A DNA stretch of 32,000 bases from Nostoc sp. PCC 7120 = FACHB-418 (GCF_000009705.1 NC_003240.1:60001-92000); one strand, 5' to 3'; shown: positions 1,170 to 22,324, counted from the stretch's first letter. The notes: generated by a model not told the origin, from the letters alone. Numbers and translations: made by a program.

Positions 1170-1249
1170 TGTACTACAAGCGCATGGCATACTGCCAAAT
1201 TGATAAAACTAAATATGTCACGTATATTTTCCCTATATGGGGACAATAT

Positions 1250-1387: not shown

Positions 1388-1389
1388 AT

Positions 1390-1677: not shown

Positions 1678-1702
1678 ATAACTAAGCATCAATCAATCTT
1701 TT

Positions 1703-1736
1703 AAGTCGTCTTAATAACAGACGACTTTTATTTTTT
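1703..1736 (+). terminator. rho-independent terminator
   Basis: A 9-bp stem (AAGTCGTCT 1703-1711 with AGACGACTT 1719-1727) is followed by TTATTTTTT. Confidence 0.6.
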
Positions 1737-1788
1737 ACAACGACTTTTTGCTTTACGCATTAAATATTGATTTCCATTAATTAAAATT

Positions 1789-2781
1789 ATGGCAAGGAAT
1801 CAAACAAAGCCTACTAATTCTGCTACTGAAGAAAGCACAGTATCCCAGTCTGAACCCCCTGAACAAACAGTTCAGAATAGTACAAACATACAAAAGCGTA
1901 AATTAGCTATTTCTAAATTTGCAAATCCTGAGTACAATGCGCCGATTAGTAACATCTGCATCTGCCAAGTCATTAACCACATGGAAGCAGAAAAAGTCGG
2001 GTTGTTTATCAAAGATAAATACTTAGCAGCAATTAACTGGCAAGGACAAGAACCTACACACAAGCACACTTTCTCTAGTGGCACGCCAGAAATGGGAGTG
2101 TTGTTGCAATCGCCCAGGATGCACATTCTTGATGTCTCTCCCAGATACATTGAACAGCGCGATGACGGCAAGATTGTAGGAGTGTACGAATCACCTGATG
2201 GGTACGAAATGTACCAAGCACTTGGCAAAGATGCCGCAGTATTGAGACGGTTTTATTTGTTGCAACTTGTTGATGAAAATAATCATAACCTGCACTCAGT
2301 ACCAATTGTCCTATCAATTAAAGGCGTTGCATCATCAAAATTTGGCGAGGCTTATAAACAGTTCCAACGCGAACTAGAGGTTGCATTCGCCCGATTTACT
2401 GATACGACTGTTGCTGAAAAACGTGCAGAGTTTCATCGTCTCGGTGTATTTCAACCCACCTTTACGCCATCTCTTGAACCTAAAGAAGCAGTCAACCAAA
2501 GAGATAAATCTTGGGTAGCAGTTGTCACTTCCTATAAATCACCGAACCCCGATGGCAGCGATTTTCTTGAATTCTTCTCAGAAGGCAAAGAAATCGATAT
2601 CCAAACAACAATGCAGGCAAATCCCGAATTCTCTCATCGCATCGGTAAAACATCAACTGTTATAGCAGAACATAATCGCCTGGTAGGTGCAGCTGATATG
2701 CCAGTAGCAGCACTTCCTCCTAGTACAGCAGGTCAAACTTATACAGCATACAGTACTGAGATGGAAGAACTGCCCTACTAA
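1789..2781 (+). CDS. hypothetical protein (330 aa) with an acidic-aromatic C-terminus (EMEELPY)
   Basis: Long ORF that is first in the + strand run ahead of dnaN. No family recognised. Confidence 0.6.
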   Translation: MARNQTKPTNSATEESTVSQSEPPEQTVQNSTNIQKRKLAISKFANPEYNAPISNICICQVINHMEAEKVGLFIKDKYLAAINWQGQEPTHKHTFSSGTPEMGVLLQSPRMHILDVSPRYIEQRDDGKIVGVYESPDGYEMYQALGKDAAVLRRFYLLQLVDENNHNLHSVPIVLSIKGVASSKFGEAYKQFQRELEVAFARFTDTTVAEKRAEFHRLGVFQPTFTPSLEPKEAVNQRDKSWVAVVTSYKSPNPDGSDFLEFFSEGKEIDIQTTMQANPEFSHRIGKTSTVIAEHNRLVGAADMPVAALPPSTAGQTYTAYSTEMEELPY

Positions 2782-2860
2782 AACAAGTATCTCATGTAAC
2801 CCAAAAGGGTGCTAGAAATAGCACCCGTTAAAACATCATCTACTAAAAGCAAAATAACAA

Positions 2861-4231
2861 ATGAAACTAAGCATTGAACAATCTAAACTCGCAGAAATTC
2901 TAGAAACCGCTTATTTCGCAATTAGTCCTAAGCCCACTGACCCAATTTTAGGAAATATCTTACTGATAGCAAATGAAGATGGGATAGTATCAGCAACAGG
3001 AACAAACCTTAACCTCACAATTCATACTACAACTACGGCTAATGTAGAAACTTCAGGTCAGGTAGCACTACCAGCCAAACTATTAACTGACACTATTAAC
3101 AATGTCAGAGGAGAAATTACCTTAGAGGTAGAAAACCAAGCCTGCATAATTACTCACAATAGCGGTAAATGCCGTCTGATTGGCGGAAAACCTGACGAGT
3201 TTCCAACTCTTCCCAAAGGAGAAAATCCAATAGAAGTAAATTTAAGTGCCAAGAAACTCCAAGCCGCACTTGAAGGGACACTATATTGCACCAATGGTGA
3301 CGAAACAAAGTTAGTTCTAACTGGTGTCAACTTCAAAATTGATACTAATAAGTGGCAAGCTGCTAGTACAAATGGTCACAAATTAGCACTAGTCACAGGA
3401 ACACTTGATAGCGAATATTCTGACCCAATTGACTTTACTGTTCCAGGTAAGTCACTTAGTGAGTTAAGCAAAATTCTCTCTCAAAGTGCTGATACAAGCG
3501 TGTGCAATATTCTTCTATCAAATAAAACTATTGAGTTTAGTCTTCCTCACACAAAAGTCATTTCCCGACTTTTAGAGGGAGAATACCCCAAAATCAATAG
3601 CTTGATTCCCAGAACATTTGAGTATGAATTTACATTAGAACGCAAGGGATTTGAGAGCGCACTGAAGCGGGTAAGTTATCTAGCCGAACGCAAGCAAAAG
3701 GTTGTCAAAATTCTCTGGGAATTGGAAGCTACACAGGCAACACTATACACCGAAGCTACTGATATCGGGGATGCAGTTGACTCGGTACTGATGAAACCAG
3801 CAACTAATCATTCAGAAAACATCAGTATTGGATTAAATATCGACTACCTTCTCGAAGGATTAAAGCACATTAGTACTGATGAAATCGTGGTGCGGTGTAA
3901 CAAACCCACGCAACCAGTCATTATCTGCCCAATGGGAGGACTGCTCAATCAGTTGTATCTAGTAATGCCTGTAGAAATTAAGCAGGGGTTTGAAAATAAA
4001 TCCACCCCAAGCAAAACGACAACAGCAGAGAAAACTCCTGAAGCATTGGAAACAACAGAAACTACTGTAGTAGCCGAACTAGAAGAAGCCATAAATAATA
4101 CTCAGACTTCTCAAACGGAAAGCAATGGTGAAACCTCTGAAGTAGAGACATCAACAGCTGAGGCCAAAGCTAGTAACAAAAGTAAGCCTAGTTCGCGTAC
4201 ACGAGCCAAGAAAGAGGCTGCTTCTGTATAA
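2861..4231 (+). CDS. dnaN: DNA polymerase III beta subunit (sliding clamp) with a ~82-aa low-complexity C-terminal extension
   Basis: The N-terminus MKLSIEQSKLAEILETAYFAISPKPTDPILGNILL and the canonical C-terminal ...LYLVMPVEI are typical of DnaN. The extra T/E/S-rich tail lies at 3983-4228. Confidence 0.9.
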   Translation: MKLSIEQSKLAEILETAYFAISPKPTDPILGNILLIANEDGIVSATGTNLNLTIHTTTTANVETSGQVALPAKLLTDTINNVRGEITLEVENQACIITHNSGKCRLIGGKPDEFPTLPKGENPIEVNLSAKKLQAALEGTLYCTNGDETKLVLTGVNFKIDTNKWQAASTNGHKLALVTGTLDSEYSDPIDFTVPGKSLSELSKILSQSADTSVCNILLSNKTIEFSLPHTKVISRLLEGEYPKINSLIPRTFEYEFTLERKGFESALKRVSYLAERKQKVVKILWELEATQATLYTEATDIGDAVDSVLMKPATNHSENISIGLNIDYLLEGLKHISTDEIVVRCNKPTQPVIICPMGGLLNQLYLVMPVEIKQGFENKSTPSKTTTAEKTPEALETTETTVVAELEEAINNTQTSQTESNGETSEVETSTAEAKASNKSKPSSRTRAKKEAASV

Positions 4232-4240
4232 AAGCAAACT

Positions 4241-4264
4241 CTCCTACCAGATAACTGGTAGGAG
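4241..4264 (+). other. perfect 10-bp hairpin between dnaN and dnaX (attenuator or RNA-processing candidate)
   Basis: CTCCTACCAG-ATAA-CTGGTAGGAG. There is no strong T-run after it. Confidence 0.35.
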
Positions 4265-4293
4265 GAATTTCAAATAAATCATTGGAAAGAACT

Positions 4294-5583
4294 ATGTACC
4301 GACCACTACATCTCAAATACCGTCCCCAGATTCTTAGTGAAGTTATTGGGCAAGAACATATCGTTCGCACTCTCATAAATGCGATCGCATTCCAAAAGAT
4401 TGCACCTGCTTACCTATTTAGTGGCCCCAAAGGTACAGGTAAAACCAGTACCGCCCGCATCATCGCTAAATCTCTTAACTGTCAATCAAGCAATGAGCCG
4501 ACAACTAAGCCCTGTGGAGAATGCAATTCATGCAAGGGAATTACGGCATCTTCTTCTGTTGATGTAACCGAACTGGATGCAGCAAGCAATAGTGGGGTAG
4601 AACTGATCCGAGAGCTTATATCCACTACCCAATTTGCACCAGTGGAGAGTAGATTCAAAATATTCATTATTGATGAATGTCATGCCCTAAGTAGCCAATC
4701 GTGGCAAGCACTCCTCAAAACCATTGAAAGCCCTCCCCGTCATGTAGTATTTATCTTCTGCACAACCGAGTTACACAAAGTTCCAGAAACGATTGTCTCC
4801 CGTTGCCAAAAGTTTGACTTTAAGAGAGTTCCTGTCTCGCTAGTTGCAAGCTACCTAGAAAAAATATCTCACCAGGAAAGTATCAACATTGCGCCATCAG
4901 CAGTTACCGCCGTAGCTAAAGCAAACAAGGGACATCTGCGCGACTCACTCAAACTGTTAGATCAGCTAACCTTACTAGGTGAAGAGGAAATTACCTATAA
5001 CTGGGTTTGGGAACTATCAGGCACTATTCCCGAATACGATCTACTCACCGTCTGTGAAAATATCATCAAAGGAGAAATTACGGGGAATTTAGGCATCCTT
5101 CAAGATTGGATTGAATCTGGTAAACAGCCAACTGCTATCCATACAAGTCTTGTCAACTTCCTCAAAGACTTACTTGTGTGCAAAACTAATCCCAATGGCA
5201 GACATCTTACACAGCTAGAACAGGACACCTGGGAGGAATTAGTAAGTATCTCGCAGTTGTGGAATATCGACCAGATCCGAAACGCGATCGCAATCTTAAT
5301 GGCACGCCAAAGTCTCATGCGGGATGAAGACGCGCACCTTTGGTTGGAAGCTACACTTATCGAGATAGTGCCAACCAACAAGGGTAGTCACCAATCACAA
5401 CCCTGGAAAGATTGGAAAACTGCTCAAGATGCAATTAACTGGGGCAAGGAACAGTTACCCCACTTAACACAAGCGCAGTTACAAGAACACTGGCAAAAGC
5501 TGACACCTATTAATGGTAAAAAGGCACCTGCTTGGGTAGAAGCTGTCCAAAAGCTGCAACAAAAACAATTACAGCAAGCTTAA
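4294..5583 (+). CDS. dnaX: DNA polymerase III gamma-type clamp-loader subunit (short DnaX, no tau C-terminal domains)
   Basis: MYRPLHLKYRPQILSEVIGQEHIV, Walker A GPKGTGKTS, zinc module CGECNSCKG, Walker B FIIDECH, and SRC (VSRCQKF). I prefer the ATG at 4294 to the TTG at 4282. Confidence 0.9.
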   Translation: MYRPLHLKYRPQILSEVIGQEHIVRTLINAIAFQKIAPAYLFSGPKGTGKTSTARIIAKSLNCQSSNEPTTKPCGECNSCKGITASSSVDVTELDAASNSGVELIRELISTTQFAPVESRFKIFIIDECHALSSQSWQALLKTIESPPRHVVFIFCTTELHKVPETIVSRCQKFDFKRVPVSLVASYLEKISHQESINIAPSAVTAVAKANKGHLRDSLKLLDQLTLLGEEEITYNWVWELSGTIPEYDLLTVCENIIKGEITGNLGILQDWIESGKQPTAIHTSLVNFLKDLLVCKTNPNGRHLTQLEQDTWEELVSISQLWNIDQIRNAIAILMARQSLMRDEDAHLWLEATLIEIVPTNKGSHQSQPWKDWKTAQDAINWGKEQLPHLTQAQLQEHWQKLTPINGKKAPAWVEAVQKLQQKQLQQA

Positions 5584-5590
5584 CTTTAAC

Positions 5591-5634
5591 GAGGGTTATA
5601 ACTATAGTTATAATCCTCAATTTATAGTTTTTTA
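5591..5634. terminator. near-palindromic hairpin plus T-run between convergent dnaX and the kinase-like gene
   Basis: GAGGGTTATAACTA/TAGTTATAATCCTC (one G-U pair), followed by TTTATAGTTTTTT. Confidence 0.45.
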
Positions 5635-5692
5635 GTAACAATTAAAATGCTAAAACTACTAAAGGGCTTAATATTTATTAAAATACTCTCAT

Positions 5693-6319
5693 TTAGGCAA
5701 CCTGCATCAATTCCATACATTTCTTTGAAAGTTCGTCTGCCACTGACACAGATTCTACATCAATACATATAAATCCGAGATGTTCAACCTTCTCCCTCAT
5801 GCGTTTATTATATAATAAGGTACGGTCTAAAAACTTTTGAATTAGGTACTTTTTATCCTCACTTACATTATAAAAATTACTTTCACTAAAGATTCGGTAA
5901 GAGAAGAGTTGGTCACTAGCCGTAAGCCAAATCGCTTTAACACCATTTTCGCTAACTAAATTCGCTACAAATTCAGGCCATAATGCAGAGCCTTCAAGGA
6001 TAAGGCATTCCGTTGATAAATCAGACGCATGAGAATGAACGATAATCTCGACTTGCGGTAACACATTTTTCTCATAATGCGACAATACATCTACAAAAAG
6101 AGCGTCAACAGACAAAGTTCCATAATGTTCTGCTACGTGTTCTGGAATAGCATTTCTATTTGCACCCACCCAAGGATGTCCAGGATGCCGAGCGAGTTTG
6201 TCTGTAGAACGATAACTCCAACCAAGCCTCGCCGCCAAAGATTGGCCAAGGGTGGATTTGCCTACATGAGAGGAGCCACCAATTAAAATCACTCGTGTTT
6301 CATTGCTTAATTCATTCAT
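5693..6319 (-). CDS. P-loop NTPase / small-molecule kinase-like protein
   Basis: Walker A motif LIGGSSHVGKST near the N-terminus. The size (208 aa) fits the kinase-like P-loop families. This is the only minus-strand gene between dnaX and polB. Confidence 0.6.
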   Translation of the reverse strand: MNELSNETRVILIGGSSHVGKSTLGQSLAARLGWSYRSTDKLARHPGHPWVGANRNAIPEHVAEHYGTLSVDALFVDVLSHYEKNVLPQVEIIVHSHASDLSTECLILEGSALWPEFVANLVSENGVKAIWLTASDQLFSYRIFSESNFYNVSEDKKYLIQKFLDRTLLYNKRMREKVEHLGFICIDVESVSVADELSKKCMELMQVA

Positions 6320-6461
6320 AAGTACTGATTAACCATATTTATTTCTGTATTTATTTAATCAAATAACCAAATAAATTAACATTTACTACCACAGCAGCAT
6401 ACGCAGTTAAGTTGATAGTTAAAAATTAATATCAACATGAAGTTAGGAAAATCTCTAATTA

Positions 6462-8279
6462 ATGAGTTATAACCACAGAGATTTTGTGAGAAAATCTAGA
6501 GGGATAATCGTTGTCGATGAAGACAAACTAAACATTTATTGGAAAGATCCCTCTTCAATAAAACCTTGGCAACCCAAAATACAACTCAAGCCATACCAGG
6601 AACTTTCACAAATATTTGTTGATATCGAAACAGCAGGAATCAACTCATTTGAAAGCCGTATTTATGCTATTGGTTGTATGGATTCAAGGGGATATTCTAC
6701 TATTTTCATGGATATCTCAGAAGCTAAAATACTAACCAAATTTATCAACCATCTCAGTAAAAGAAATCCAGATGTAATTTTCACATATAACGGGATGGCA
6801 TTTGATATTCCATTTATTATTACTCGATGCAACTTGCACGGTATAAAACACCCATTTAAAGTTGCATCCAAATCTCGGACTATTCGTACCGCCCAAGTAC
6901 GGGGCGAGCCACTAAAAATTCAGGAGGTGTTCATCCGAAATAGCCAACACGTAGACATTTATATCTGCGTTCTGAGGTGGGATTTCATAGCCAAAAAGCT
7001 AACTAACGGCAGATCGCTCAAAAAGGCTGTATTGGACATGGGACTGCGCCAGAACACCAGGCTAGTTCTTCCCTATGAGGAAATCCTCGCTTGTTGGAAA
7101 GATGGCCCCAATAGCAAGGGATGGAAACGGCTAAAAGAATATCTTATTTACGACCTTGAAGACACCCGGCTAATTGCAAATAGACTTGTACCCTCATACT
7201 ATTACGAAGCACTAATTGTACCGGAAATGAATCTCCAGCAGCTAACACTTGCTGGTAATGGTACTAAATGGGAACGAATATTTGAGCATCATTATCCAGG
7301 TTATAAACCAAAACCCCATCGCAAGTACAAATTCCAAGGAGGGATGGCTTACTCTATTCCTGGATTGTATAGAAGGGTTGGATATGCAGATATTAGCTCA
7401 ATGCATCCTTGGGCAATGCTAGACAAGGGTATTTGCTCAATTAAAGATACAGAACGTATTGGGCTAAGTATTCTGCAATATTTGGTAAATGAAAAATTTA
7501 GGTTGGAACAACTTGCATCTGCTGGAGATGTTGCTGCTAAGGAAAAAAGAGAATCAGTCAAGGTTTTAGCTAACTCCGAATTTGGATTCTTAGGCACCTC
7601 TGAACTCGCCTTCAATGATATGGAGGCTGCTGCATTAGTTACAGCCTACAGTCGAAAAGTACTCAAGCTAATGATTGAAATTATCACGCGGTACGGCGGT
7701 ACTCCTGTGGAAGTTGACACAGATGGAGTGTTCTTCACACATCCCAACCCAGAAGAGGTACGTAGTTTACTTCAATCTCAATTGCCCAAAGGGATAACTG
7801 TCAAGCTAGAGTTTATCGCTGACGCTATGTTTATCCCCGAACGGGGAACCAAAAATTACCTTTTATGGCTTCCAGACGGGAAAATCATCACTAAAGGCAA
7901 CTGGCGCAACCGCGATCGCTCTCAACTAGAGAAAGAGTTTTCTATTGAGTATTTAACCCTGCTAATTCAAAATGTATCAGCAGCAGAAGATTATTATGCA
8001 CACATCAAATCCCAGATTTTATCAAGGGAATATCCAAAAGAAAAACTTGCAATTACACGCAAGATTAAAGAGGGCGAAAAAGAAATACTCAAACTAGGGA
8101 AACCTGGAGATGTAGTAACTTACTATTACGGAATTAGCGGCATAACCAATATCAGCAGTAATGAGAATTACTCACGTCAATACTATCTTCACCTTATTGA
8201 AAAAAGGCGAGAAGAAATTCTCAAAATAGCTGCTCCTACAACACTAGAAAGTAACAAACGTCAATTATCTCTTTTCTAA
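6462..8279 (+). CDS. polB: compact family-B DNA polymerase with 3'-5' exonuclease motifs and a C-terminal QLSLF clamp-binding motif
   Basis: ExoI FVDIETAG (aa ~54), ExoII YNGMAFDIPF, ExoIII YLIYDLED, pre-motif A FQGGMAYSIPGLY, motif A YADISSMHPW, motif B KVLANSEFG, motif C VEVDTDG, KxY TKNY. The last five residues are QLSLF. Confidence 0.85.
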   Translation: MSYNHRDFVRKSRGIIVVDEDKLNIYWKDPSSIKPWQPKIQLKPYQELSQIFVDIETAGINSFESRIYAIGCMDSRGYSTIFMDISEAKILTKFINHLSKRNPDVIFTYNGMAFDIPFIITRCNLHGIKHPFKVASKSRTIRTAQVRGEPLKIQEVFIRNSQHVDIYICVLRWDFIAKKLTNGRSLKKAVLDMGLRQNTRLVLPYEEILACWKDGPNSKGWKRLKEYLIYDLEDTRLIANRLVPSYYYEALIVPEMNLQQLTLAGNGTKWERIFEHHYPGYKPKPHRKYKFQGGMAYSIPGLYRRVGYADISSMHPWAMLDKGICSIKDTERIGLSILQYLVNEKFRLEQLASAGDVAAKEKRESVKVLANSEFGFLGTSELAFNDMEAAALVTAYSRKVLKLMIEIITRYGGTPVEVDTDGVFFTHPNPEEVRSLLQSQLPKGITVKLEFIADAMFIPERGTKNYLLWLPDGKIITKGNWRNRDRSQLEKEFSIEYLTLLIQNVSAAEDYYAHIKSQILSREYPKEKLAITRKIKEGEKEILKLGKPGDVVTYYYGISGITNISSNENYSRQYYLHLIEKRREEILKIAAPTTLESNKRQLSLF

Positions 8280-8367
8280 ATGAACAAAGTTGAGATTTTA
8301 GGTAAATTTTGAAGGCACTAAATATAAAGGTTTTTCAAATTCATACATTCTGATTTGTCTGTAACTA

Positions 8368-9150
8368 ATGAAAAATAAATCCGCTTCTCGCAAGCCCAGA
8401 CTTAATAAAAAGCAAAGGGCTTGGGTAAACTCATTCCTTTCGTCTCATCCTAATGCCAGAGTTAGAACTATCTACGAATTAGATGGCGATCGCGTAGTTC
8501 AAATTGAGTGGTGGGAAAACACAAACCCAGTAATATTAGACCCAAAAACTTACATCCAAGGAATTATCAGCTACAACATGTGGGTCAAACTAAGAAAGTC
8601 TGGCGACCCCAGGAAAACAGCTGAGTTTTCTTATCGCATTACCCCACCAGAAAAACGAAGTGCATCATGGCACTTAACAGGTCAACTCTCTCTAGAACTT
8701 CCCCAATGTTACGAAGTTACAGAACCAAACAACCCAGTTATCATTAAACCAAAAAGGAGAAATGCTCAAACCAAAAAAGTTAAAAAATTTCTTCAATATA
8801 CTCTTCCTTTATCAGAAATTAGTGTTCAACTTCATACTACAAATATAGAAGATAATGGTGTTACTCTATCTGGACAAGAAATATTACTAGAAAACACATC
8901 GCAGCTAAATTTAGATACTGGTAAAGACACTAAACTTCCCGAAGCTATAGTCAAAAGTCTCTCAGAGAAACAAGCCGACTTAAAGGAATGGGAAACAGCC
9001 ATTACACTATACGAGGTAGCTGGTTATAGTGGAGTAATAGAGTATCTTCAACAGTTAGATTCTTGGCGCAAATACTTGGGTAATAAACCAGTAGATAACC
9101 ATATTGATAAAGACTCAATTCAAAATTTCGTACAACCAGTACAAACTTAA
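8368..9150 (+). CDS. hypothetical protein (260 aa) with a basic N-terminus and an internal QLSLEL
   Basis: Long ORF between polB and holA, followed by a good terminator. No family recognised. Confidence 0.55.
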   Translation: MKNKSASRKPRLNKKQRAWVNSFLSSHPNARVRTIYELDGDRVVQIEWWENTNPVILDPKTYIQGIISYNMWVKLRKSGDPRKTAEFSYRITPPEKRSASWHLTGQLSLELPQCYEVTEPNNPVIIKPKRRNAQTKKVKKFLQYTLPLSEISVQLHTTNIEDNGVTLSGQEILLENTSQLNLDTGKDTKLPEAIVKSLSEKQADLKEWETAITLYEVAGYSGVIEYLQQLDSWRKYLGNKPVDNHIDKDSIQNFVQPVQT

Positions 9151-9194
9151 GTAAGTGTTTACTGGTCACACATAATAAATGCCAAGCAAGCAGA

Positions 9195-9222
9195 AAGAGT
9201 TAATACTAACTCTTCTTTTTTT
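9195..9222 (+). terminator. rho-independent terminator
   Basis: AAGAGTTA-ATAC-TAACTCTT stem-loop followed by a T7 run. Confidence 0.65.
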
Positions 9223-9273
9223 AACCACTGCTTATAACTAACGCATGATAATTAGATGTTTATCTAACTTGTA

Positions 9274-10233
9274 ATGCCAGTATACCTATACTACGGCGAA
9301 GATACCTATTCGCTCAATCAAAAAATTAACCATTTGGTGAATCAAAATGTTCATGCTGAATGGAAAGATTTCAACTACATCAAGCTATCTGGAAATGAGA
9401 AAAATATCACTGCCAAGGTTTTTACTGAGGTTATGACTTTGCCCTTTGGAGATGGTAACAAAATTGTTCATACAGACAGCGATCATTTAATTGAAAGTTT
9501 ATCAAATGAGGATAATAACCAAGAACTTGAAAATCAACTTTCTCGAATACCTGCAAGTAACATTCTTTTAATTGCTAGTAACAAAAAGCCAGATTCCCGC
9601 AGAACAGTAGTAAAAACTATCCTAAAATATGCTCAACAAGAAGAGTTTCCTCTCGTTCCTTGTTGGGATAAAAAGGGGATAGTTAATTTGATAGGAAAGT
9701 ATGCAGCTATCCATCAAGTTAAACTTACACCGGATGTGACTGATTATCTAGTCGAAGCAATTGGTAATAACACTGCAAGAGCCGATAGCGAATTTGCTAA
9801 ACTTGCTGTCTATGCAATTGAAAAAATTATTTCCCTTGAGGAAATAAAACAATTAGTTAGTAATCACAATACTGACTACCAAAAGCTTACTATTGCTATG
9901 TTAAGGAATCATTCAAACTTGGCAATAGCACAAGTGGATAAACTACTAGATAGTAATGAACATCCACTCAAAATAGTAGCAACTATTACGTCAATTTTTC
10001 GTACTTGGCTAATAACTAAAGCTGGCGTAGAAGCTAAGTTATCTGACATGAAGATTGCAGAAATAGCCGAATTGAAGAACCCTAAAAGATTGTATTACCT
10101 CAAAGATGAAATCAAGTTTGTAGGCGTTCAAAAACTGAAAAATAGCCTTACCTTACTTTTACAACTCGAAACGGAACTCAAAAGCGGCACTAACAATTTA
10201 ACTAGCCGAATTATCGAAATTTGCACGATATGA
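9274..10233 (+). CDS. holA: DNA polymerase III delta subunit
   Basis: The N-terminus MPVYLYYGEDTYSLNQKI and the LVEAIGNNTARADSEFAKLAVYA segment match the HolA pattern, as does the length (319 aa). Its stop overlaps the holB start. Confidence 0.8.
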   Translation: MPVYLYYGEDTYSLNQKINHLVNQNVHAEWKDFNYIKLSGNEKNITAKVFTEVMTLPFGDGNKIVHTDSDHLIESLSNEDNNQELENQLSRIPASNILLIASNKKPDSRRTVVKTILKYAQQEEFPLVPCWDKKGIVNLIGKYAAIHQVKLTPDVTDYLVEAIGNNTARADSEFAKLAVYAIEKIISLEEIKQLVSNHNTDYQKLTIAMLRNHSNLAIAQVDKLLDSNEHPLKIVATITSIFRTWLITKAGVEAKLSDMKIAEIAELKNPKRLYYLKDEIKFVGVQKLKNSLTLLLQLETELKSGTNNLTSRIIEICTI

Positions 10234-11105
10234 AAAACGACTTATTTACAGAAATCATCGGACAGCATACCGCCAAACTTCTACTAACTGAAGCAATCGA
10301 ACGTAATCAAATTGCTCCCGCATACCTATTTAGCAACGAAGTTGAGGGAGTGGGCAAAGGAAAAATTGCTTTGGCATTTGCAAATGCAATACTCTCAAGA
10401 GGAAGTCGCTCCGCGATCGCAGGAGAATCTAAACATCTAGACATCTTACAAATCAAACCAAGCTATACCGAAAACACCTCCCAGCAGAAAGGTGTACCTG
10501 CTATTCGAGTAGAACAGGTGCGCGAGGTAATTGAATTTCTCTCAACTAGTGCAGTCGAGGGCAAGCAAAAGGTTGTGATTATCCACGAAGCAGATATGCT
10601 CAACCCTACTGCCGCTAACAAACTTCTTAAGACGCTGGAAGAACCTAAAACTGGAACGTTTATTCTGATATCATCCTATCCTCAAAAGCTATTACTCACT
10701 ATCAAGAGTAGGTGTCAAATCATACCTTTCCAAAGGTTAACTGATGAGGAGGTTATTTCTGTCCTTAAAGACCAACAGATTGAGGCAACAGAAAAAATAC
10801 TAGCTATCAGTTCGGGCAGTCCTGGTCAAGCGATCGCCAACATGACAATGTTAGCTTCCATCTCACAAGAAATCACAAGCCAACTCGAAGTACCTCCTGA
10901 CGATATCCTCAAGGCACTCAGTTTGAGTAACTGCATCTCAAGCTGGAATCACCAAACGCAGTTATGGTTGCTTACCTACCTGCAATACAACTGGTGGCAG
11001 AAATTAAAAAGCACTATGCTACTAGCCAAATTCACTCAAGCAAGAAAGCAATTGCTGCATCACGTTACTCCTAGAAGCGTTTGGGATAGCCTACTTCTGC
11101 CATAG
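10230..11105 (+). CDS. holB: DNA polymerase III delta' subunit
   Basis: IIGQHTAKLLLTEAIERNQIAPAYLF, a degenerate P-loop, KVVIIHEADMLNPTAANKLLKTLEEP, and SRC (KSRCQIIPF). The ATG at 10230 overlaps the holA TGA (ATGA). Confidence 0.85.
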   Translation: MKNDLFTEIIGQHTAKLLLTEAIERNQIAPAYLFSNEVEGVGKGKIALAFANAILSRGSRSAIAGESKHLDILQIKPSYTENTSQQKGVPAIRVEQVREVIEFLSTSAVEGKQKVVIIHEADMLNPTAANKLLKTLEEPKTGTFILISSYPQKLLLTIKSRCQIIPFQRLTDEEVISVLKDQQIEATEKILAISSGSPGQAIANMTMLASISQEITSQLEVPPDDILKALSLSNCISSWNHQTQLWLLTYLQYNWWQKLKSTMLLAKFTQARKQLLHHVTPRSVWDSLLLP

Positions 11106-11130
11106 CAAAATACACTCATTATCAAAAAGC

Positions 11131-11170
11131 ACTGCCAGTTAGAAGTATTTCTAGCTGGCAGTATTTGTTT
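11131..11170 (+). terminator. candidate terminator after holB
   Basis: An ACTGCCAG...CTGGCAGT stem followed by ATTTGTTT. Confidence 0.45.
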
Positions 11171-11183
11171 ACACATAAAAGAT

Positions 11184-11855
11184 ATGAACCAGCAACACAG
11201 TTTATTCAATGTCGAAGAAACCATCCGCAACAGTAAAAACCAAAAAACCAGCGAAATATTAAACCCTAGCACTAGAAAGATACTTCAGTTACTAACCAGT
11301 CAAGGGATTAACAAAGCTGTAACAGCCAGCCTACTCGATCTAGCAGGAGCAAGTCGTGAAATTGTTCAATACATCGCTGGGCCAATTGTCACTCAGCAGA
11401 ACGGCTGGCAACAGTCAATTCCCACTTGGGTTTGGCGCGCGATCGCAGTTGATAGATTAGACGCAGCTTTACAAGAGATAGACAAGGGAGAAGTAGGTAA
11501 ACTCGCCTCTAGCAGCGAAGTCGTTGCACTGATGATGCCAATTGCTTTTGAAGTGCCGCTATCATCTGAATGGACAGATGTTTATCTCTGGGCAAGTTAT
11601 GATGCCCTCGTTAGGCACAGACCTTTCAAGAATTTTAACTATGAAAACCTCTGGGAGAAGATTGGTACAACTCCGGTTTCGTATGACAAAATTCGCTCTG
11701 ATTATGAAACCCTTGCTGCTGATATTCGTTCTCGTGTAGTCAAACACGCGGCGAAAGAGGGATGGGGTAAGAAGTCTTCAAATAACAACAAACACCCTGT
11801 TACAGCAAATTCAACTGAAAGTAATACGAAGATGGAGCAATTGTCACTGTTTTAA
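11184..11855 (+). CDS. hypothetical protein (223 aa) ending in the clamp-binding pentapeptide QLSLF
   Basis: ORF directly after holB. The C-terminus is ...NTKMEQLSLF, and the N-terminus MNQQHSLFNV carries a second motif-like peptide. Confidence 0.6.
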   Translation: MNQQHSLFNVEETIRNSKNQKTSEILNPSTRKILQLLTSQGINKAVTASLLDLAGASREIVQYIAGPIVTQQNGWQQSIPTWVWRAIAVDRLDAALQEIDKGEVGKLASSSEVVALMMPIAFEVPLSSEWTDVYLWASYDALVRHRPFKNFNYENLWEKIGTTPVSYDKIRSDYETLAADIRSRVVKHAAKEGWGKKSSNNNKHPVTANSTESNTKMEQLSLF

Positions 11856-11858
11856 TAA

Positions 11859-12554
11859 CTAATTGTTAGTACTTTTTTCAACACTCCTCCCAAATTCCTT
11901 CCTCTCTTTGTCCGTGAGAGGAGGAAGTTCTTCCTTGTAATAAAAATTGCCTAATTTCTGACACTGATTGACATAAATTCGTCTTGCTGAATCACTTGCC
12001 CCCAAGTCCTGACGCAAAAGTAATTTAAATGATTTTTCATGCTCCTTCAATTCTTTTGCTGCTACAATAATTTCTGGTGATACGGCAGGATTTTCATAAG
12101 TAGAAGAAAGTTCCTCACTTGATGAATAAACGCTTAGTCTATTGCCAGCAGGTTGTGTTAGAAAACGCTGAGTATTATACGAACGCCATAGACCTAATTT
12201 TTCGCGCTGTAGTGACTCAATTTCAACCTCACCAACTCGGTCTGGAGTACTGCGCCGCACGTAGAGAAAACAAGCTTTATCAGCCGCTACAGTCAAACTT
12301 ACTTTTACACCATTACCATCAAAATAAAACGAGTCAATTAAGTCGTTTTCTGCACTAATTTCTCCAAGCTTCTCTTTATTTGATAAATCAGGTAACACTT
12401 CTGAATTTAACGACGGCGTAGCATTATTAACATTAGCTGAGGATAATGAAGGTGTAGGTGAAGGATTCGATTCTATAGCTGAAACTTTATTTTCTTTTTC
12501 TGGAGATGAACATCCAACCAGTAAGAATAATCCTATAAATAAGTATATTTTCAT
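11859..12554 (-). CDS. lipoprotein of unknown function
   Basis: MKIYLFIGLFLLVGCSS gives a signal peptide and an LVGC lipobox. The ATG at 12554 is preferred to the TTG at 12581. Confidence 0.6.
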   Translation of the reverse strand: MKIYLFIGLFLLVGCSSPEKENKVSAIESNPSPTPSLSSANVNNATPSLNSEVLPDLSNKEKLGEISAENDLIDSFYFDGNGVKVSLTVAADKACFLYVRRSTPDRVGEVEIESLQREKLGLWRSYNTQRFLTQPAGNRLSVYSSSEELSSTYENPAVSPEIIVAAKELKEHEKSFKLLLRQDLGASDSARRIYVNQCQKLGNFYYKEELPPLTDKERKEFGRSVEKSTNN

Positions 12555-12595
12555 AAATATAAATTTGTCTTTATTAACCAACAGCAGAATATTAA

Positions 12596-13771
12596 TTATT
12601 GTTTTCCATTCAAACGACCTGTTTGATAAAAATCAAGCAGGTTAGGGAAAGCTTTTTGTAGCAACCAGTTCCGCCCAATTTCTGATTCGGGAATATTTGA
12701 AGCAGCCATGTAATAACCACTTCTGTAAGCAGCTACACCCAAACAAGCTTGTAGGCTGGATATAGCCCGTGAAGAAGCTGGAATATCCATCAAATCTTGT
12801 ATATGACTGGGATGATAATTTTGTCCTGCCACCAAAAAATAAACTAAAGTATGAACCAACCGGGATAAAATTACTGTTCGGTCTTGCCAACGCTCTAAAT
12901 GAGACTTGATACAGAAGTAATCAGGTAAATCAGCTGCTTGAGATTGATCAAGGAATAAATCGCTTTGGCTTTCGATAAAACTAGAATCCAGACCTATAAA
13001 CTGTTTTAGAAAAACAAGCGTTTTGCCCCAACGTTCGTGTTCCTTAGTTTCAGGAGAGAACGCACCTTCTGAATATTGTGAGCCATACTTTTCTTGAAGC
13101 TGTACAACTGCCTCTTGATTGATATCACCTTGCCAGTCAGATTTAGCAAAAAATTTTTTGAAAATATCTTTCAAATAAATGGATGAAAATTCACTAATAT
13201 CCGGTGCTTCATCATCAAAATCGTCTTCATAAGTATCAATAAGAAATTTCTCTAACTCGATTTCTAGCTCTCGTTTTCTATTAACTGGCAGTAATGATTT
13301 AGCATCTTCTAATGATAAAGGAAAATCTAAATAAGGATGTCCTTTAGCTAAGTAAGAATCACCCAAATCTGTCAAACTTTTTAGCGCAATAGTCCGGGCA
13401 AAATACTCATCTTGTGGATGTACGCATATCCCATCTAATTCCTTATCCACCAACATCATAGTAATTGCCAGTAGAGCAAACCATGAAGCATCGTGCAAAC
13501 AAGTTGGTAAATCAGTAACTAAATCTACTAACTTCAGTTCTAGGATTTCTCCCCAAACGCCTATCCTAGCGGTATTGGAAACATCACAAAAATGCTCGAC
13601 CTCTTCTCCAACAGATGTTTCTCCTAACCACGTAAGATTTTCTACTTGCAAAGGAGAGGAGTAGTCAGGAGTTAGCTGGTTTTGGCTGTCTTCATCGAAC
13701 TGTATCCACATCAAAGCCAAGAGCATCAGCTTACAAATACTTACTCGCTTCAAGAGAAGATATTCAAGCAT
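12596..13771 (-). CDS. hypothetical protein (391 aa)
   Basis: Long ORF with an ATG start. No family recognised. Confidence 0.55.
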   Translation of the reverse strand: MLEYLLLKRVSICKLMLLALMWIQFDEDSQNQLTPDYSSPLQVENLTWLGETSVGEEVEHFCDVSNTARIGVWGEILELKLVDLVTDLPTCLHDASWFALLAITMMLVDKELDGICVHPQDEYFARTIALKSLTDLGDSYLAKGHPYLDFPLSLEDAKSLLPVNRKRELEIELEKFLIDTYEDDFDDEAPDISEFSSIYLKDIFKKFFAKSDWQGDINQEAVVQLQEKYGSQYSEGAFSPETKEHERWGKTLVFLKQFIGLDSSFIESQSDLFLDQSQAADLPDYFCIKSHLERWQDRTVILSRLVHTLVYFLVAGQNYHPSHIQDLMDIPASSRAISSLQACLGVAAYRSGYYMAASNIPESEIGRNWLLQKAFPNLLDFYQTGRLNGKQ

Positions 13772-14006
13772 AAGTCATTACTTATAATTTTTAGATACAT
13801 ACCACGACATTTGCAATCCCACCATAGCACAGGATAATTAGCCGTTCCTTAGTAAAAACCGCAATGCTATGAGAAACAGAAATAAAAAATAACTCATAAG
13901 TATGAAGCAAAAAGTGTGCTTTAAATAAAACAATTCGTCAAAATGATAAATCCTAAAAGAACTAATGCTGACGCAGCAATAAAAGAAATATATCAATTCT
14001 CGCGTT

Positions 14007-14390
14007 ATGAACTATATCAACAAAGTCATGCTAGTTGGCAGATGTGGACAAGAACCTGATCTGAAATTTTTCGAGTCGGGTGCAGTTAAGGCTTCAATCT
14101 CTATTGCAGTAAGACCGCCCTACAGAAGTGAACAAGCCCTTTGGTTTGATTTAGTCGCTTGGGGAAATCAAGCAGAAGTGATTGGAAATTACGTTCGTAA
14201 AGGAACTCAGATTGCAATTACTGGTGAGTTTGGATTTGATCGTTGGGCTGATAAAAATTCTGGCACTATGCGACAAAAACCTGTAATCACAATCAACACC
14301 ATCGAATTATTAGGTTCACCCCGTAAAGAAGAATCTACATCCACTTCTGCACCAAACGAAACACAGGCTGTAGCTAACGCAAATTTCTAG
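14007..14390 (+). CDS. ssb: single-stranded DNA-binding protein, short form lacking the acidic C-terminal tip
   Basis: OB-fold pattern NKVMLVGRCGQEPDLKFF...WFDLVAWGNQAEVIGNYVRKGTQIAITGEF. It ends ...AVANANF, with no Gly-rich linker and no D-D-D-I-P-F type tip. Confidence 0.85.
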   Translation: MNYINKVMLVGRCGQEPDLKFFESGAVKASISIAVRPPYRSEQALWFDLVAWGNQAEVIGNYVRKGTQIAITGEFGFDRWADKNSGTMRQKPVITINTIELLGSPRKEESTSTSAPNETQAVANANF

Positions 14391-14400
14391 AAAATTACAA

Positions 14401-14430
14401 ATCGCCTATGCAGTATAAATCATAGGCGAT
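14401..14430 (+). other. perfect 10-bp hairpin between ssb and the next ORF
   Basis: ATCGCCTATG, a 10-nt loop, then CATAGGCGAT. No T-run follows. Confidence 0.3.
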
Positions 14431-14463
14431 TAACCATCTAATCAATCTACAAATCAAACGACC

Positions 14464-14883
14464 ATGATTCATAATACTGCAACTATTAATCTTAAATCAG
14501 TGAACACAACCCACGACAAAGAAGGTTCCTTGATTGCTTTTGGGATTGCTGAATTCTACTACCGTTCCAAGGAAGGAGTCGTTACTGACGAGATACCATT
14601 CCGTTCCAAGGGCGCACCTGCTGTCGTTATCAACGAACAGGGGGAAGGCGTACATGGTACAGCAGAAGGATATCTTGATTTAGTGGTAGATAACAGGGGT
14701 GAGTACAAAGAAAAGATTGCCACATTCGTAATTAAAAACTTTATCTCAGCACAACCGATTAACGAACTTACCCAAGTTAGCAAAAACTCTCACTCGCCTG
14801 AAACTCCCGATTTTGCCAAGGAACTACTCGAAGATAACGTTACTTCGACAAATGAAGACCTAGACGAAGAACCTCCATTTTAG
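14464..14883 (+). CDS. hypothetical protein (139 aa) ending in an SSB-like acidic tip (DLDEEPPF)
   Basis: ORF directly downstream of ssb. Its C-terminus NEDLDEEPPF resembles the SSB interaction tip. Confidence 0.6.
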   Translation: MIHNTATINLKSVNTTHDKEGSLIAFGIAEFYYRSKEGVVTDEIPFRSKGAPAVVINEQGEGVHGTAEGYLDLVVDNRGEYKEKIATFVIKNFISAQPINELTQVSKNSHSPETPDFAKELLEDNVTSTNEDLDEEPPF

Positions 14884-14902
14884 AACCAACTAACTGAATA
14901 AT

Positions 14903-14948
14903 GCTAGTCCAGACAGGTTTACTGGTTTGAACTAGCGTTATTTTTTTC
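14903..14948 (+). terminator. rho-independent terminator
   Basis: A GCTAGTCCAG...CTGG...ACTAGC stem followed by a T8 run. Confidence 0.6.
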
Positions 14949-15020
14949 AAAAATCCAAAATAAAAATCCACTGTTTGGTAGAATCGCTGACATGGGTTCA
15001 CAAAATCGCTTCATTAATAT

Positions 15021-15791
15021 ATGTCATCAACCAAAATAATTGCCACTTTCAATCAGTCAGGTGGTGCAGCTAAGACAACTATTACACACAATCTTGGATA
15101 CCACCTTGCTAAAAAACATCGTGTACTGCTTGTGGATATGGACCCACAAGCATCACTAACAGCTTTTATGGGATTAGGAGAAGTCAAGCTGCAAACTGAA
15201 CAAACTATCTATGGCGCGATCGCTGAAGAAACTCCCCTCTATGTATGGGAAAAACCCATTTACGGGATGCACCTTGTGCCTACAAATATACAATTGGCAG
15301 GTACGGAGCAAAAAATTTTCCATGACCTGACCATCGACAACCGCCAACGGCTCAAGTTTGCACTCTCAAATGTACTTGACCAGTATGATTATATTTTGAT
15401 TGATTGTCCGCCTTCTCTAGGAATCCTAAGCATTATGAGCTTAGTAGCTGCTTCACACGTTATTATTCCTGTTGAGACACAATACAAGTGCTATCTTGGC
15501 ACCAATCAACTGCTAGAAACAATTGCCCGGCTTAAAAAAGGAGGACACCAGAAATTACAAATTGCCTGTATAATTCCAACCAAATACGATAATCGTAATC
15601 TTCAAGACACAGGAATACTGGAAGAAATTAAACAACAGGTTGAAGGACGGATACATGTTACTGCCCCCATTCCTAAATCAACAGCTTTTCCTGACGCAAC
15701 CCAAGCACATCTACCACTTGCACTCCACAAAAAAAACCACCCCGCAGTTAGCATACTCGAAGAAATCACAAAATATATCACTCAACTATGA
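15021..15791 (+). CDS. parA: ParA-family partition ATPase with a deviant Walker A lacking the signature lysine
   Basis: IIATFNQSGGAAKTTITHNLG (Walker A), LLVDMDPQ, ILIDCPPSLG. Its end overlaps the parB start by 4 nt. Confidence 0.9.
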   Translation: MSSTKIIATFNQSGGAAKTTITHNLGYHLAKKHRVLLVDMDPQASLTAFMGLGEVKLQTEQTIYGAIAEETPLYVWEKPIYGMHLVPTNIQLAGTEQKIFHDLTIDNRQRLKFALSNVLDQYDYILIDCPPSLGILSIMSLVAASHVIIPVETQYKCYLGTNQLLETIARLKKGGHQKLQIACIIPTKYDNRNLQDTGILEEIKQQVEGRIHVTAPIPKSTAFPDATQAHLPLALHKKNHPAVSILEEITKYITQL

Positions 15792-16735
15792 GCCAAAAAC
15801 GCGAACTAGAAAAACTCACCGGACTCGATAATTTATTTGGAGACGAAGAAGAACAATCCTTATCCGATTCCACTTTACCTTTATCCCAAATCATCCTTCC
15901 GCCGAGTCAGCCCCGTCGCTATTTTGACCCTGTAAAACTCAAATCGCTCGCCAACAGCATTAAGGAAGTGGGTTTATTAGAACCCATAGCCGTCAGAAAG
16001 ATTGAGGAAGACAAGTACGAACTTATCGCTGGTGAACGCCGTCTCAAAGCTTGTGAAATTGCAGGACTTGAGGAAATTTCTGTAGTCATTCTTGAATGTG
16101 ACGAGAAAAAAGCTCGCAAACTCCGCTTAGTTGAAAACCTCCAGAGGGAAGACCTCAACGCTTATGAGGAAACTATCGGAATTCTCGAACTACTTGCCGA
16201 AGAACTCGATCTTGACCAAGAAGCGGTGGTCTCTCTTCTATATCAGATGAATAATGAGACAAAAGGAAATTCTAACCATAACGTTATGGTTAGTGAAGAA
16301 GCACTTGCTATACAAACAATATTCCTCCAGATAGGCAAGATATCTTGGGAATCGTTTGTATCCAACCGCCTTCCTCTACTCAAACTTCCTCAAGATATCC
16401 AAATCACCCTTGAAAAGGGTCAAATCGAGTATACAAAAGCACAAGTGATTGCACGTATCAAGGATAATAAAAAGCGGCAAAATATTTTAAAAAAAGCTAT
16501 TGAAGAAAATCTGTCATTATCTGCAATCAAAGAGTTAGTGGGGGATATTCTCCCAATTCAATCAGAAAACAAGCCGCAGTCTCCCCAGCAACAAAATAAA
16601 GAAAGAGCAAGCAAAATATACAAATCACTGCTTAAGAGCAAAATCTGGGATGACGAGAAAAAAGTAAAAAAAGTTAATCGTCTTTTTGACCAAATTGAAG
16701 CACTTTTAGAAGAAAAGAAGGAGGATGCTTCTTGA
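15788..16735 (+). CDS. parB: ParB-family partition protein
   Basis: ParB-box motifs GLLEPIAVRK and YELIAGERRLKA. The C-terminus is charged. Confidence 0.9.
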   Translation: MSQKRELEKLTGLDNLFGDEEEQSLSDSTLPLSQIILPPSQPRRYFDPVKLKSLANSIKEVGLLEPIAVRKIEEDKYELIAGERRLKACEIAGLEEISVVILECDEKKARKLRLVENLQREDLNAYEETIGILELLAEELDLDQEAVVSLLYQMNNETKGNSNHNVMVSEEALAIQTIFLQIGKISWESFVSNRLPLLKLPQDIQITLEKGQIEYTKAQVIARIKDNKKRQNILKKAIEENLSLSAIKELVGDILPIQSENKPQSPQQQNKERASKIYKSLLKSKIWDDEKKVKKVNRLFDQIEALLEEKKEDAS

Positions 16736-22302: not shown

Positions 22303-22324
22303 TTGGATTAATTTTGACTAGCAA

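Follow-up and report, generated by a model that had tools for sequence, protein, structure and literature searches.

A 32,000-nucleotide stretch of plasmid DNA from Nostoc sp. PCC 7120 = FACHB-418 (NC_003240.1:60001-92000; hereafter the window, with positions counted from its first letter) carries a gene cluster in which a family B DNA polymerase (PolB) is encoded together with a bacterial-type beta sliding clamp and clamp loader, a single-stranded DNA-binding protein (SSB) and the partition genes parA and parB. The copying of bacterial replicons is attributed to C-family polymerases, and the family B enzymes of bacteria are regarded as dispensable repair accessories. We propose that the cluster encodes a hybrid holoenzyme, PolB working on a bacterial clamp and loader, that serves to copy the plasmid and to reduce its need for host DNA polymerase III (Pol III), a reading to which we assign a probability of roughly 60%. 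A preliminary description of positions 1789 to 16735, made from the sequence alone, had suggested that the element encodes its own clamp-tethered PolB replisome. This is supported in silico by a clamp-binding peptide at the end of PolB, by conserved synteny and by a fusion of the loader subunit delta to PolB. From gene identities, motifs, gene order and this fusion, we infer how the proteins would interact and what they would do in vivo.

A family B polymerase with features of group G3

PolB (6462-8279, plus strand) is a compact protein of 605 amino acids (aa). It matches the Pfam family DNA_pol_B_exo1 above threshold and solved archaeal family B polymerases in the PDB at 4e-21 (phmmer), and its score against Pfam DNA_pol_B (21.3) lies just below the cut-off of 23. 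The preliminary description had credited PolB with a full set of exonuclease and polymerase motifs, and all are present: ExoI (FVDIETAG), ExoII (YNGMAFDIPF), ExoIII (YLIYDLEDT), motif A (DISSMHPW), motif B (KVLANSEFG), motif C (EVDTDG) and KxY (KNY), with one departure in motif A. Across 16 homologs of 33-98% identity, the exonuclease residues D54, D115 and D231 and the polymerase residues D310, K367, N371, G375, D419, T420, D421, K464 and Y466 are invariant, and no catalytic Asp is substituted. The canonical N-terminal domain is not present. ExoI begins at residue 54, residue 85 aligns to residue 185 of archaeal PolB, and about 100-130 N-terminal residues are missing, as they are in the phage relatives. 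The departure in motif A concerns the steric-gate Tyr, which excludes ribonucleotides in family B polymerases. It is replaced by His in PolB, which reads SSMHPW (positions 7395-7415, residues 312-318) against SS(L/M)YPS in the family. Relatives share this His as far down as 85% identity, and MHP (G-M-H-P) recurs in a second subclade.

The best solved relatives of PolB are archaeal PolBs and the exonuclease region of Pol epsilon. Motif C reads EVDTDG, ESDTDG or ECDTDG throughout the cyanobacterial plasmid PolBs, and phage PolBs have S in the Glu position. The Glu of motif C (E-x-DTDG) is a synapomorphy of the PolEpsilonN-like clade and of bacterial group G3, whose named viral members are Nostoc and Salinibacter phage PolBs (PMC7544198). 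Phage matches at E<=1e-20 (50,697 records searched) came only from Nostoc/Anabaena/Dolichospermum phages (38% identity) and from Salinibacter phages, and PolBs from Salinibacter metagenome-assembled genomes were matched as well.

An exhaustive search of 1.84 billion representative proteins returned 272 PolB relatives at E<=1e-30. Many of them are 1,400-1,900 aa long and consist of a PolB, about 40% identical to the plasmid enzyme, fused to Prim-Pol, PriCT-2 and DUF3987 helicase-type domains. Five such fusions (P0117, P0122, P0123, P0126 and P0129), in which the other replication domains lie upstream of PolB, span 950-1,770 aa; the fullest have Prim-Pol, PriCT-2 and DUF3987, the others only some of these. 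Such proteins number dozens among the best 150 representatives, are metagenomic, and are the nearest non-cyanobacterial relatives of PolB. They look like all-in-one mobile-element replicases. As the relatives of PolB are phage PolBs and fusion replicases, its lineage appears to serve the genome replication of phages and mobile elements. Judged by its motifs and relatives, PolB is predicted to be primer-dependent, to proofread and to belong to the PolEpsilonN-like/G3 lineage of family B, with phage or mobile-element descent.

Three other identities were considered and rejected. The 'GWN' signature in ExoII marks the Pol II clade, group G1 (PMC7544198), but ExoII of PolB reads YNGMAFD, and the NCBIfam Pol II models score at most 45 bits against cut-offs of at least 570. 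Membership of the cyanobacterial PolB_SITDG group (PMC7544198) is contradicted by the intact DTD of motif C. Protein-primed and primer-independent PolBs show no similarity to this enzyme, whose best matches are primer-dependent and which has the KxY motif.

Two observations lie at the edges of the family. Distant PolB relatives (24-28% identity), annotated as '3'-5' exonuclease', occur on Deinococcus deserti plasmid 1 and on nine other Deinococcus megaplasmids; in the single Deinococcus locus examined, that of D. deserti (L089), PolB is solitary, with no adjoining clamp or loader gene. A 625-aa protein (P0049) joins the N-terminal ATPase of DnaX to the C-terminal two thirds of PolB in a single open reading frame (ORF), a chimera that probably arose by deletion between adjacent dnaX and PolB genes.

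A bacterial clamp and clamp loader in conserved order with PolB

The clamp gene dnaN (2861-4231, plus strand) encodes a complete beta clamp. N-terminal, central and C-terminal Pfam beta-clamp domains were all found, the TIGR00663 score is 254 bits (cut-off 138), and residues 1-373 can be aligned over their whole length with complete solved clamps. After ...LVMPVEIK, the protein continues into an extra C-terminal tail of about 80 aa (residues 375-456, positions 3983-4231) that is acidic and Ser/Thr-rich and has a terminal Lys/Arg patch (KSKPSSRTRAKKEAASV). The tail begins where canonical clamps stop, beside the peptide-binding pocket. It is 70-110 aa long and variable in sequence in most lineages, and three Oscillatoriales-type loci showed none. 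Plasmids that are otherwise 98% identical can differ in the tail, of which they have two alleles.

The loader is encoded by dnaX, holA and holB. The dnaX gene (4282-5583, plus strand; 433 aa; TIGR02397 436 bits) specifies a short, gamma-like motor with Walker A (GPKGTGKT), Walker B (IIDECH), SRC and zinc-module (CGECNSC) motifs; its true start is probably the ATG at 4294, as in RefSeq relatives. Profile searches did not find tau domains IV-V, which bind DnaB and the Pol III alpha subunit. In their place the C-terminus has a conserved ...P(I/V)(N/K)GKKAPAWV... sequence (the NGKKAPAWV segment), and a Gloeothece-type homolog gave only sub-threshold matches to folds related to tau domain V. The delta subunit, the clamp-opening wrench, is encoded by holA (9274-10233, plus strand; TIGR01128 176 bits), and the delta prime stator, which has only SRC of these motifs, by holB (10230-11105, plus strand; NF005638 341 bits against a cut-off of 230). 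The scores of all three loader profiles exceed their cut-offs. The ATGA overlap between holA and holB, pointed out in the preliminary description, is read straight from the sequence, as is one between parA and parB.

A further tie between loader and polymerase comes from two independent metagenomes, in which HolA and PolB form one continuous 940-aa ORF, preceded at a distance of 4 bp by a tail-less 360-aa dnaX. This fusion is a Rosetta-stone link that would connect the loader to the polymerase.

A survey of one genome per species from 185,579 species yielded 114 loci encoding a PolB relative, the best 80 of which are all cyanobacterial. Sufficient flanking sequence was available for 56 loci, and in 47 of these all of dnaN, dnaX, holA and holB surround PolB, with the co-oriented order dnaN-dnaX-PolB-holA-holB conserved. 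The synteny persists down to 46-50% PolB identity, and the plasmids that show it come from several orders of cyanobacteria, Chroococcidiopsidales and Chroococcales among them.

Sequence identity is uneven across the module (L029-L045 compared with L024, L051, L061 and L078). In the Nostoc group, divergence is greatest in dnaX and PolB (68-73% identity), and their neighbours are 82-97% identical; the Scytonema/Iphinoe group shows the reverse, with 72-84% for dnaX and PolB and 45-52% for the neighbours. This mosaic pattern points to a probable exchange of cassettes by recombination. By identity correlation, dnaX and PolB share an evolutionary history distinct from that of dnaN, holA and holB. 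We do not take the correlation as proof that dnaX and PolB are co-adapted, as the mosaic could result simply from their being neighbours and the loci are not independent of one another.

Putative clamp-binding motifs and SSB-type tips

PolB ends in QLSLF (residues 601-605), a consensus beta-binding pentapeptide. QL[ST]LF stands at the extreme C-terminus of essentially all full-length PolBs of at least 46% identity, and the phage PolBs examined do not have it; in phage A-1(L), no clamp or loader gene lies within 9 kb of PolB. The ORFs of all fetched loci contain 132 occurrences of QL[ST]LF, compared with 3.1 expected from composition. At the extreme C-terminus there are 127, compared with 0.06 expected. 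Module proteins account for nearly all occurrences.

Similar motifs occur in other proteins encoded by the backbone. The product of orf8368 (8368-9150, plus strand), a conserved two-domain protein characterised here from an ortholog alignment and an AlphaFold2 (AF2) model, contains an invariant GQLSLELPQ (of the hexapeptide QLxLxL type), a motif that nearly all of about 60 orthologs have and that the model places in a low-confidence, disordered linker between two folded domains. The conserved 223-aa product of orf11184 (11184-11855, plus strand) has one motif at each end, Q(H/Q)SLF at the N-terminus and EQLSLF at the C-terminus, both identified in its orthologs. An orphan DNA methyltransferase of the N6-adenine type (114-1169, plus strand; 351 aa), which matches PHROG DNA methyltransferase families down to 6e-51 and has EPSAGSG and NPPF motifs, begins with MQLSLL; about 30 orthologs, reaching down to 60% identity, keep MQLSL[L/F] at this end. 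Among relatives, a 160-aa ORF directly after the primase gene has a QLSLF-type C-terminus, and the module of a Calothrix PCC 7716 plasmid is closed by a 1,731-aa methyltransferase-helicase, distinct from the 114-1169 enzyme, that ends in QLSLFEL. We consider the QLSLF-type motifs of PolB, orf11184, orf8368 and the methyltransferase, which are conserved and either terminal or in disordered segments, to be candidate clamp-binding sites, along with those of the primase-adjacent ORF and the methyltransferase-helicase of relatives.

A second set of proteins is marked by its C-terminal tips. The first core gene of the module encodes a DUF5895 protein (1789-2781, plus strand; Pfam DUF5895 3e-30) for which AF2 predicts a core (residues 58-290) with a predicted local distance difference test score of about 90 and disordered termini, and which ends in an invariant acidic tip, ...E(E/Q/K)LPY. 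The SSB encoded by ssb (14007-14390, plus strand; PF00436 3e-22; TIGR00621 91 bits) ends in ...VANANF, which is conserved over 48-100% identity; the acidic DDDIPF tip is not present. A canonical-looking SSB tip is borne by the product of the next gene, orf14464 (14464-14883, plus strand), a conserved 139-aa protein whose gene always follows ssb and whose acidic, SSB-tail-like end reads ...DLDEEPPF, or DDIPF in some orthologs. The published primers for alr7579 match both ends of the ssb ORF exactly, identifying this SSB, from its sequence, as Alr7579 of PCC 7120 or its ortholog, and the element as pCC7120beta or a plasmid very close to it.

The four ORFs of no assigned function that the preliminary description found interleaved in the module are real genes conserved in relatives, and its suggestion that they encode accessory subunits fits these termini. 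By reason of their QLSLF-type motifs, orf8368 and orf11184 look like clamp partners, and by reason of their SSB-tail-like tips, DUF5895 and orf14464 look like SSB-type partners. PHROGs and NCBIfam gave no match for these ORFs, and orf11184 had none in Pfam either. Profile searches with orf14464 and orf11184 against the PDB returned no match, and the AF2 models of DUF5895 and orf8368 had no PDB fold match at E<=1e-3. Matches of AF2 models to proteins resembling the oligonucleotide/oligosaccharide-binding fold (RPA, Stn1 and the MCM N-terminus; probability about 0.1) were discounted as too weak to count as evidence. Against a viral fold library, DUF5895 had 21 matches at E<=1e-3, all to uncharacterised viral proteins. 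We also rejected the idea that orf14464 encodes a divergent SSB, as profile-profile comparison shows no relation.

Replication genes upstream of the window

The segment from 114 to 16735 is the downstream half of a co-oriented, conserved replication backbone of roughly 25-30 kb. In relatives with 95% identity, a Prim-Pol primase lies about 5 kb upstream of the point corresponding to position 1, and a superfamily 2 (SF2) helicase of the MrfA type, with the MrfA zinc-binding domain, lies about 9-12 kb upstream. On the Tolypothrix plasmid, the co-oriented upstream order is the MrfA-type SF2 helicase, a 310-aa protein with Prim-Pol and PriCT-2 domains, the small QLSLF-bearing ORF, an E2/JAB/E1 triad, a conserved ORF and the methyltransferase with which the window starts. 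The conserved ORF bears the annotation PD-(D/E)XK nuclease in a Chroococcidiopsis plasmid. Just beyond the backbone, also upstream and co-oriented on the Tolypothrix plasmid, is a type IV secretion system (T4SS) block.

PLSDB contains 18 cyanobacterial plasmids with PolB, and every one of them has a Prim-Pol gene, in most cases a short way upstream and in the same orientation. The Prim-Pol and PriCT-2 protein shows homology to the N-terminal half of the CyRepA1 family, whose members are validated Rep proteins of cyanobacterial plasmids (PMC10079941, PMC10899382).

Within the window there is no helicase, primase or dnaE gene, in agreement with the preliminary description. Its term 'self-contained' therefore applies if the primase and helicase genes beyond the window are counted, but not to the window alone. 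No dnaE or polC was found near the cluster. On the complete 215-kb Tolypothrix plasmid, none of dnaE, polC, dnaB and dnaG is annotated, and no polymerase domain was detected in the large proteins that lack an annotation.

The E2/JAB/E1 triad consists of a family D E2, a JAB/MPN peptidase and a ThiF-type E1 and sits inside the backbone between Prim-Pol and the methyltransferase (11913-14079 of the Tolypothrix locus, L001). It also occurs in five further loci (L003, L062, L065, L067 and L087) and is conserved down to about 42% identity. It is either a defence system or a system acting on replication proteins, for example on the Lys-rich clamp tail.

The element, its relatives and its cargo

Over 17 kb, the window shares about 95% identity with 215-300 kb megaplasmids of Tolypothrix, Aulosira, Scytonema, Nostoc, Microchaete and Trichormus (the latter being A. 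variabilis plasmid C). Mobility typing classed most of the matching Nostocales megaplasmids as MOBP/MPF_T conjugative, and the hosts of this plasmid family are mostly filamentous cyanobacteria. PolB is 97-98% identical across assemblies of Nostoc, Tolypothrix, Scytonema, Calothrix, Fortiea, Chlorogloeopsis and Hydrococcus. Hydrococcus rivularis NIES-593 (Pleurocapsales; L041) has a near-identical copy of the whole module; in Chlorogloeopsis sp. ULAP02 (L050), only PolB and orf8368 were found. Identity this high in distantly related cyanobacteria reflects either very recent inter-order plasmid transfer or contamination of cultures.

RefSeq and GenBank annotate PolB in relatives as '3'-5' exonuclease', 'ribonuclease H-like domain-containing protein', 'DNA polymerase I' or 'hypothetical protein', names that hide the module from keyword searches.

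All ORFs of the preliminary description lie where it had placed them, and profile hidden Markov models uphold its calls of dnaN, a short dnaX, PolB, holA, holB, ssb and parA/parB. The module genes are on the plus strand, as it had reported for nearly all of the region; the exceptions are three minus-strand ORFs. One of them (5693-6319), between dnaX and PolB, gave only weak matches to P-loop kinases. It is absent from most close relatives, some of which have an S-adenosylmethionine-dependent methyltransferase or an insertion sequence (IS) in its place, and it is therefore best seen as variable cargo and not as part of the machine. Because the cargo genes at this site differ among relatives, the dnaX-PolB junction behaves as an insertion hot spot. 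The other two (11859-12581 and 12596-13771) lie between the loader genes and ssb and encode a predicted lipoprotein, with a lipobox-like LLVGC, and a 391-aa protein. Many relatives among the Nostocales keep this pair, and more distant ones lack it. It gave no family match in Pfam-type and PHROG profile searches and is probably cargo.

The module is followed by parA (15021-15791, plus strand), which matches ParA ATPase profiles, and parB (15788-16735, plus strand), which matches profiles of the N-terminal and helix-turn-helix domains. The parAB genes are linked to the module in many Nostocales loci. Promoter and terminator scans of the window gave no excess over shuffled expectation.

The remainder of the window (16893-32000) carries stress and metal cargo, most of it named from the annotation of a 95%-identical relative: an RppA/RppB two-component system, a cysteine synthase and an ANKH-like membrane protein, a universal stress protein, a TVP38 protein, an isoprenylcysteine methyltransferase-like protein, a heavy-metal P-type ATPase, and DUF305 and DUF2808 proteins. 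Between rppA and the gene for cysteine synthase, an AT-rich intergenic stretch (GC 0.32) contains a 45-nucleotide inverted repeat (arms 19206-19250 and 19481-19525, 82% complementary, 230 nucleotides apart), adjoined by a 12-nucleotide short tandem repeat at 19259-19281.

Discussion

In the system that we propose, the G3-lineage PolB would be held on DNA by the plasmid beta clamp through its C-terminal QLSLF, and the clamp would be loaded by the plasmid gamma-delta-delta-prime loader formed by the short DnaX, HolA and HolB. PolB is probably tied to the loader as well, by the DnaX tail or, in one lineage, by covalent fusion to delta. The clamp may also be the hub on which the products of orf8368, orf11184 and the small primase-adjacent ORF dock, together with the adenine methyltransferase. 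Single-stranded DNA (ssDNA) would be handled by the variant SSB (tip ANANF) with orf14464 and DUF5895. Priming, and probably initiation, would come from the upstream Prim-Pol/PriCT-2 protein, and unwinding possibly from the neighbouring MrfA-type SF2 helicase. This machinery would copy the plasmid and lessen its dependence on host Pol III, which would suit a plasmid that is near-identical in many genera.

Several points weigh against this proposal. The clearest comes from A. variabilis ATCC 29413, where ISAva7 (IS5-like) splits PolB of plasmid C (9025-11730 of locus L002, corresponding to 6462-8279 of the window) and the plasmid is maintained; both pieces are otherwise intact (98% identical), and the same split is found in strain 0441. 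PolB is thus not strictly essential, and since the plasmid persists, the host replisome can evidently take over when PolB is lost, at least in culture. Some of the surveyed loci have a truncated PolB or an incomplete gene set, and there are truncated copies on chromosomes. QLSLF is a universal consensus, so the module proteins could equally use the host clamp, and nothing in the data marks the plasmid clamp as their preferred or orthogonal partner. The steric-gate His could alter sugar selectivity or activity. No recognisable replicative hexameric helicase was identified, the SF2 helicase being of a repair-associated type, and searches of the window found no recognisable origin, iterons or parS, only short two-copy matches without arrays. 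Purified Alr7579, the SSB ortholog, binds short ssDNA poorly (PMC3976300). Finally, the literature yielded no expression or genetic data on the module, including under the PCC 7120 gene identifiers around alr7579.

A stronger version of the proposal holds that PolB, and not a C-family enzyme, is the main replicase of the replicon, that the clamp serves as a private hub, and that a clamp-tethered methyltransferase acts on nascent DNA at the fork as a counterpart of DNMT1 with PCNA. We advance this version tentatively, as a possibility that is more probably wrong than right. More speculative still is the thought that the E2/JAB/E1 triad might modify the Lys-rich clamp tail, by analogy with the ubiquitination of PCNA.

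The module might alternatively serve conjugation and not vegetative replication. In the recipient, Prim-Pol, SSB and PolB with its clamp would make the incoming single strand double-stranded, with the methyltransferase shielding the new DNA from restriction; in the donor, they could also resynthesise the displaced strand. Every typed module plasmid is MOBP and most are also MPF_T, the T4SS block lies directly upstream in the same orientation, and the surroundings resemble a leading region in content (SSB, orphan methyltransferases, an ArdC-like zincin and a Gp157-like gene nearby). A preference of the SSB ortholog for long, structured ssDNA and the dispensability of PolB for maintenance of plasmid C would fit as well. 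However, on the Tolypothrix plasmid the relaxase and MobB genes, and hence the likely oriT, are more than 70 kb from the module, so that this is not a classical leading region. The parAB genes and the CyRepA-like Prim-Pol within the block are hallmarks of vegetative maintenance, related PolBs serve phages and fusion replicases, and chromosomal copies also exist. A role confined to conjugation therefore seems unlikely to us, although more probable than the explanations that follow.

Comparison with E. coli Pol II raises another explanation. Pol II is a proofreading family B enzyme with a C-terminal QLxLF-type peptide that uses the beta clamp loaded by the DnaX complex, and the plasmid PolB is likewise a bacterial family B enzyme with proofreading motifs and such a peptide. 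By this analogy the module would be an accessory for repair, damage tolerance or recombination-dependent synthesis under ultraviolet, desiccation or metal stress, and not a plasmid replicase. A repair role would agree with the MrfA zinc-binding domain of the upstream helicase, with the conserved gene that one relative's annotation calls a PD-(D/E)XK nuclease, with the stress and metal-resistance cargo and with the loss of PolB in plasmid C; DUF5895 could be an annealing or ssDNA-binding protein, Y-family polymerases are largely missing from cyanobacteria, and bacterial PolBs are generally seen as non-essential accessory enzymes (PMC12926913). The differences from Pol II are nevertheless considerable. 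The plasmid enzyme is PolEpsilonN-like/G3, with the E-x-DTDG motif C, no 'GWN' and no N-terminal domain, and its lineage is used by phages and primase-helicase fusions. It comes with a clamp, full loader, SSB and primase of its own; Pol II relies on those encoded by the chromosome, and since it manages with these host components, a repair polymerase would have no need of such a set. The tight linkage to a Rep-like Prim-Pol and parAB, and the lack of any visible LexA/SOS link or SOS context, also speak against repair as the main role, which we hold to be less probable again than conjugation.

That the module is a decaying relic of a once-captured phage or mobile-element replication module, hitch-hiking on the backbone with no present function, might be read from the IS insertion in one lineage, the truncated and sometimes chromosomal copies, the steric-gate His and the cargo inserted at gene junctions, but it is scarcely credible given that catalytic residues, clamp motifs and terminal tips are conserved over 33-98% identity in several orders, that 47 of 56 loci keep the gene order and that the ATGA translational coupling is retained.

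Seen as a plasmid replisome, the module combines features of several known systems. The preliminary description had likened it to phage T4, and it does resemble the T4 replisome (gp43 PolB, gp45 clamp, gp44/62 loader and gp32 SSB) in being a mobile element that encodes a PolB, a clamp, a loader and an SSB. The likeness is functional only, because the clamp and loader are of bacterial type: the module has a clamp of the three-domain beta dimer type with DnaX, HolA and HolB, whereas those of T4 are PCNA-like and RFC-like. Moreover, the module resides on a conjugative plasmid with parAB and not in a virus. With group G3, PolB shares the Glu of motif C, and its strong phage relatives are Nostoc/Anabaena and Salinibacter phage PolBs; unlike canonical G3 members, it has no N-terminal domain. 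It differs from the Nostoc phage A-1/N-1 PolBs in having QLSLF and, in comparison with A-1(L), in the adjacent clamp and loader genes. The upstream Prim-Pol/PriCT-2 protein corresponds to the N-terminal part of CyRepA1, but the module primase is a separate 310-aa protein without a DUF3987 helicase domain, and small CyRepA plasmids carry no polymerase, clamp or loader. In the metagenomic replicases, finally, the roughly 40% identical PolB is fused to other domains, whereas the plasmid PolB is separate and putatively clamp-tethered.

Parts of this picture have already been published. The plasmid PolBs were noted as relatives of the phage A-1/N-1 PolB (PMC4916379), group G3 has been defined (PMC7544198), G3 enzymes were reported to be uncharacterised and to carry a beta-clamp-binding motif (PMC12926913), and the Alr7579 SSB has been described (PMC3976300). 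The accounts found of the polymerase deal with it in isolation. What appears to be new is the hybrid as a system, a mobile element with its own predicted PolB replisome built on a bacterial clamp system. In the literature outside subscription journals we found no account of a dedicated clamp, loader, SSB and primase operon, of a delta-PolB fusion or of a motif-bearing accessory family, although a prior description is possible.

The operon makes it possible to test, in a concrete case, whether a Pol-epsilon-like enzyme serves as a replicase within a bacterial cell, and it bears on the exchange of polymerase families between clamp systems in evolution. It supplies two leads, a compact polymerase (605 aa) that has proofreading motifs and comes with a defined processivity kit, and a set of uncharacterised proteins flagged as clamp or SSB partners, and it could provide parts for orthogonal replication in cyanobacterial synthetic biology; pCC7120beta resides in PCC 7120, a genetically tractable model strain. 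For the cyanobacteria that carry these metal-resistance megaplasmids, a replisome that travels with the plasmid is a possible explanation of their wide host range.

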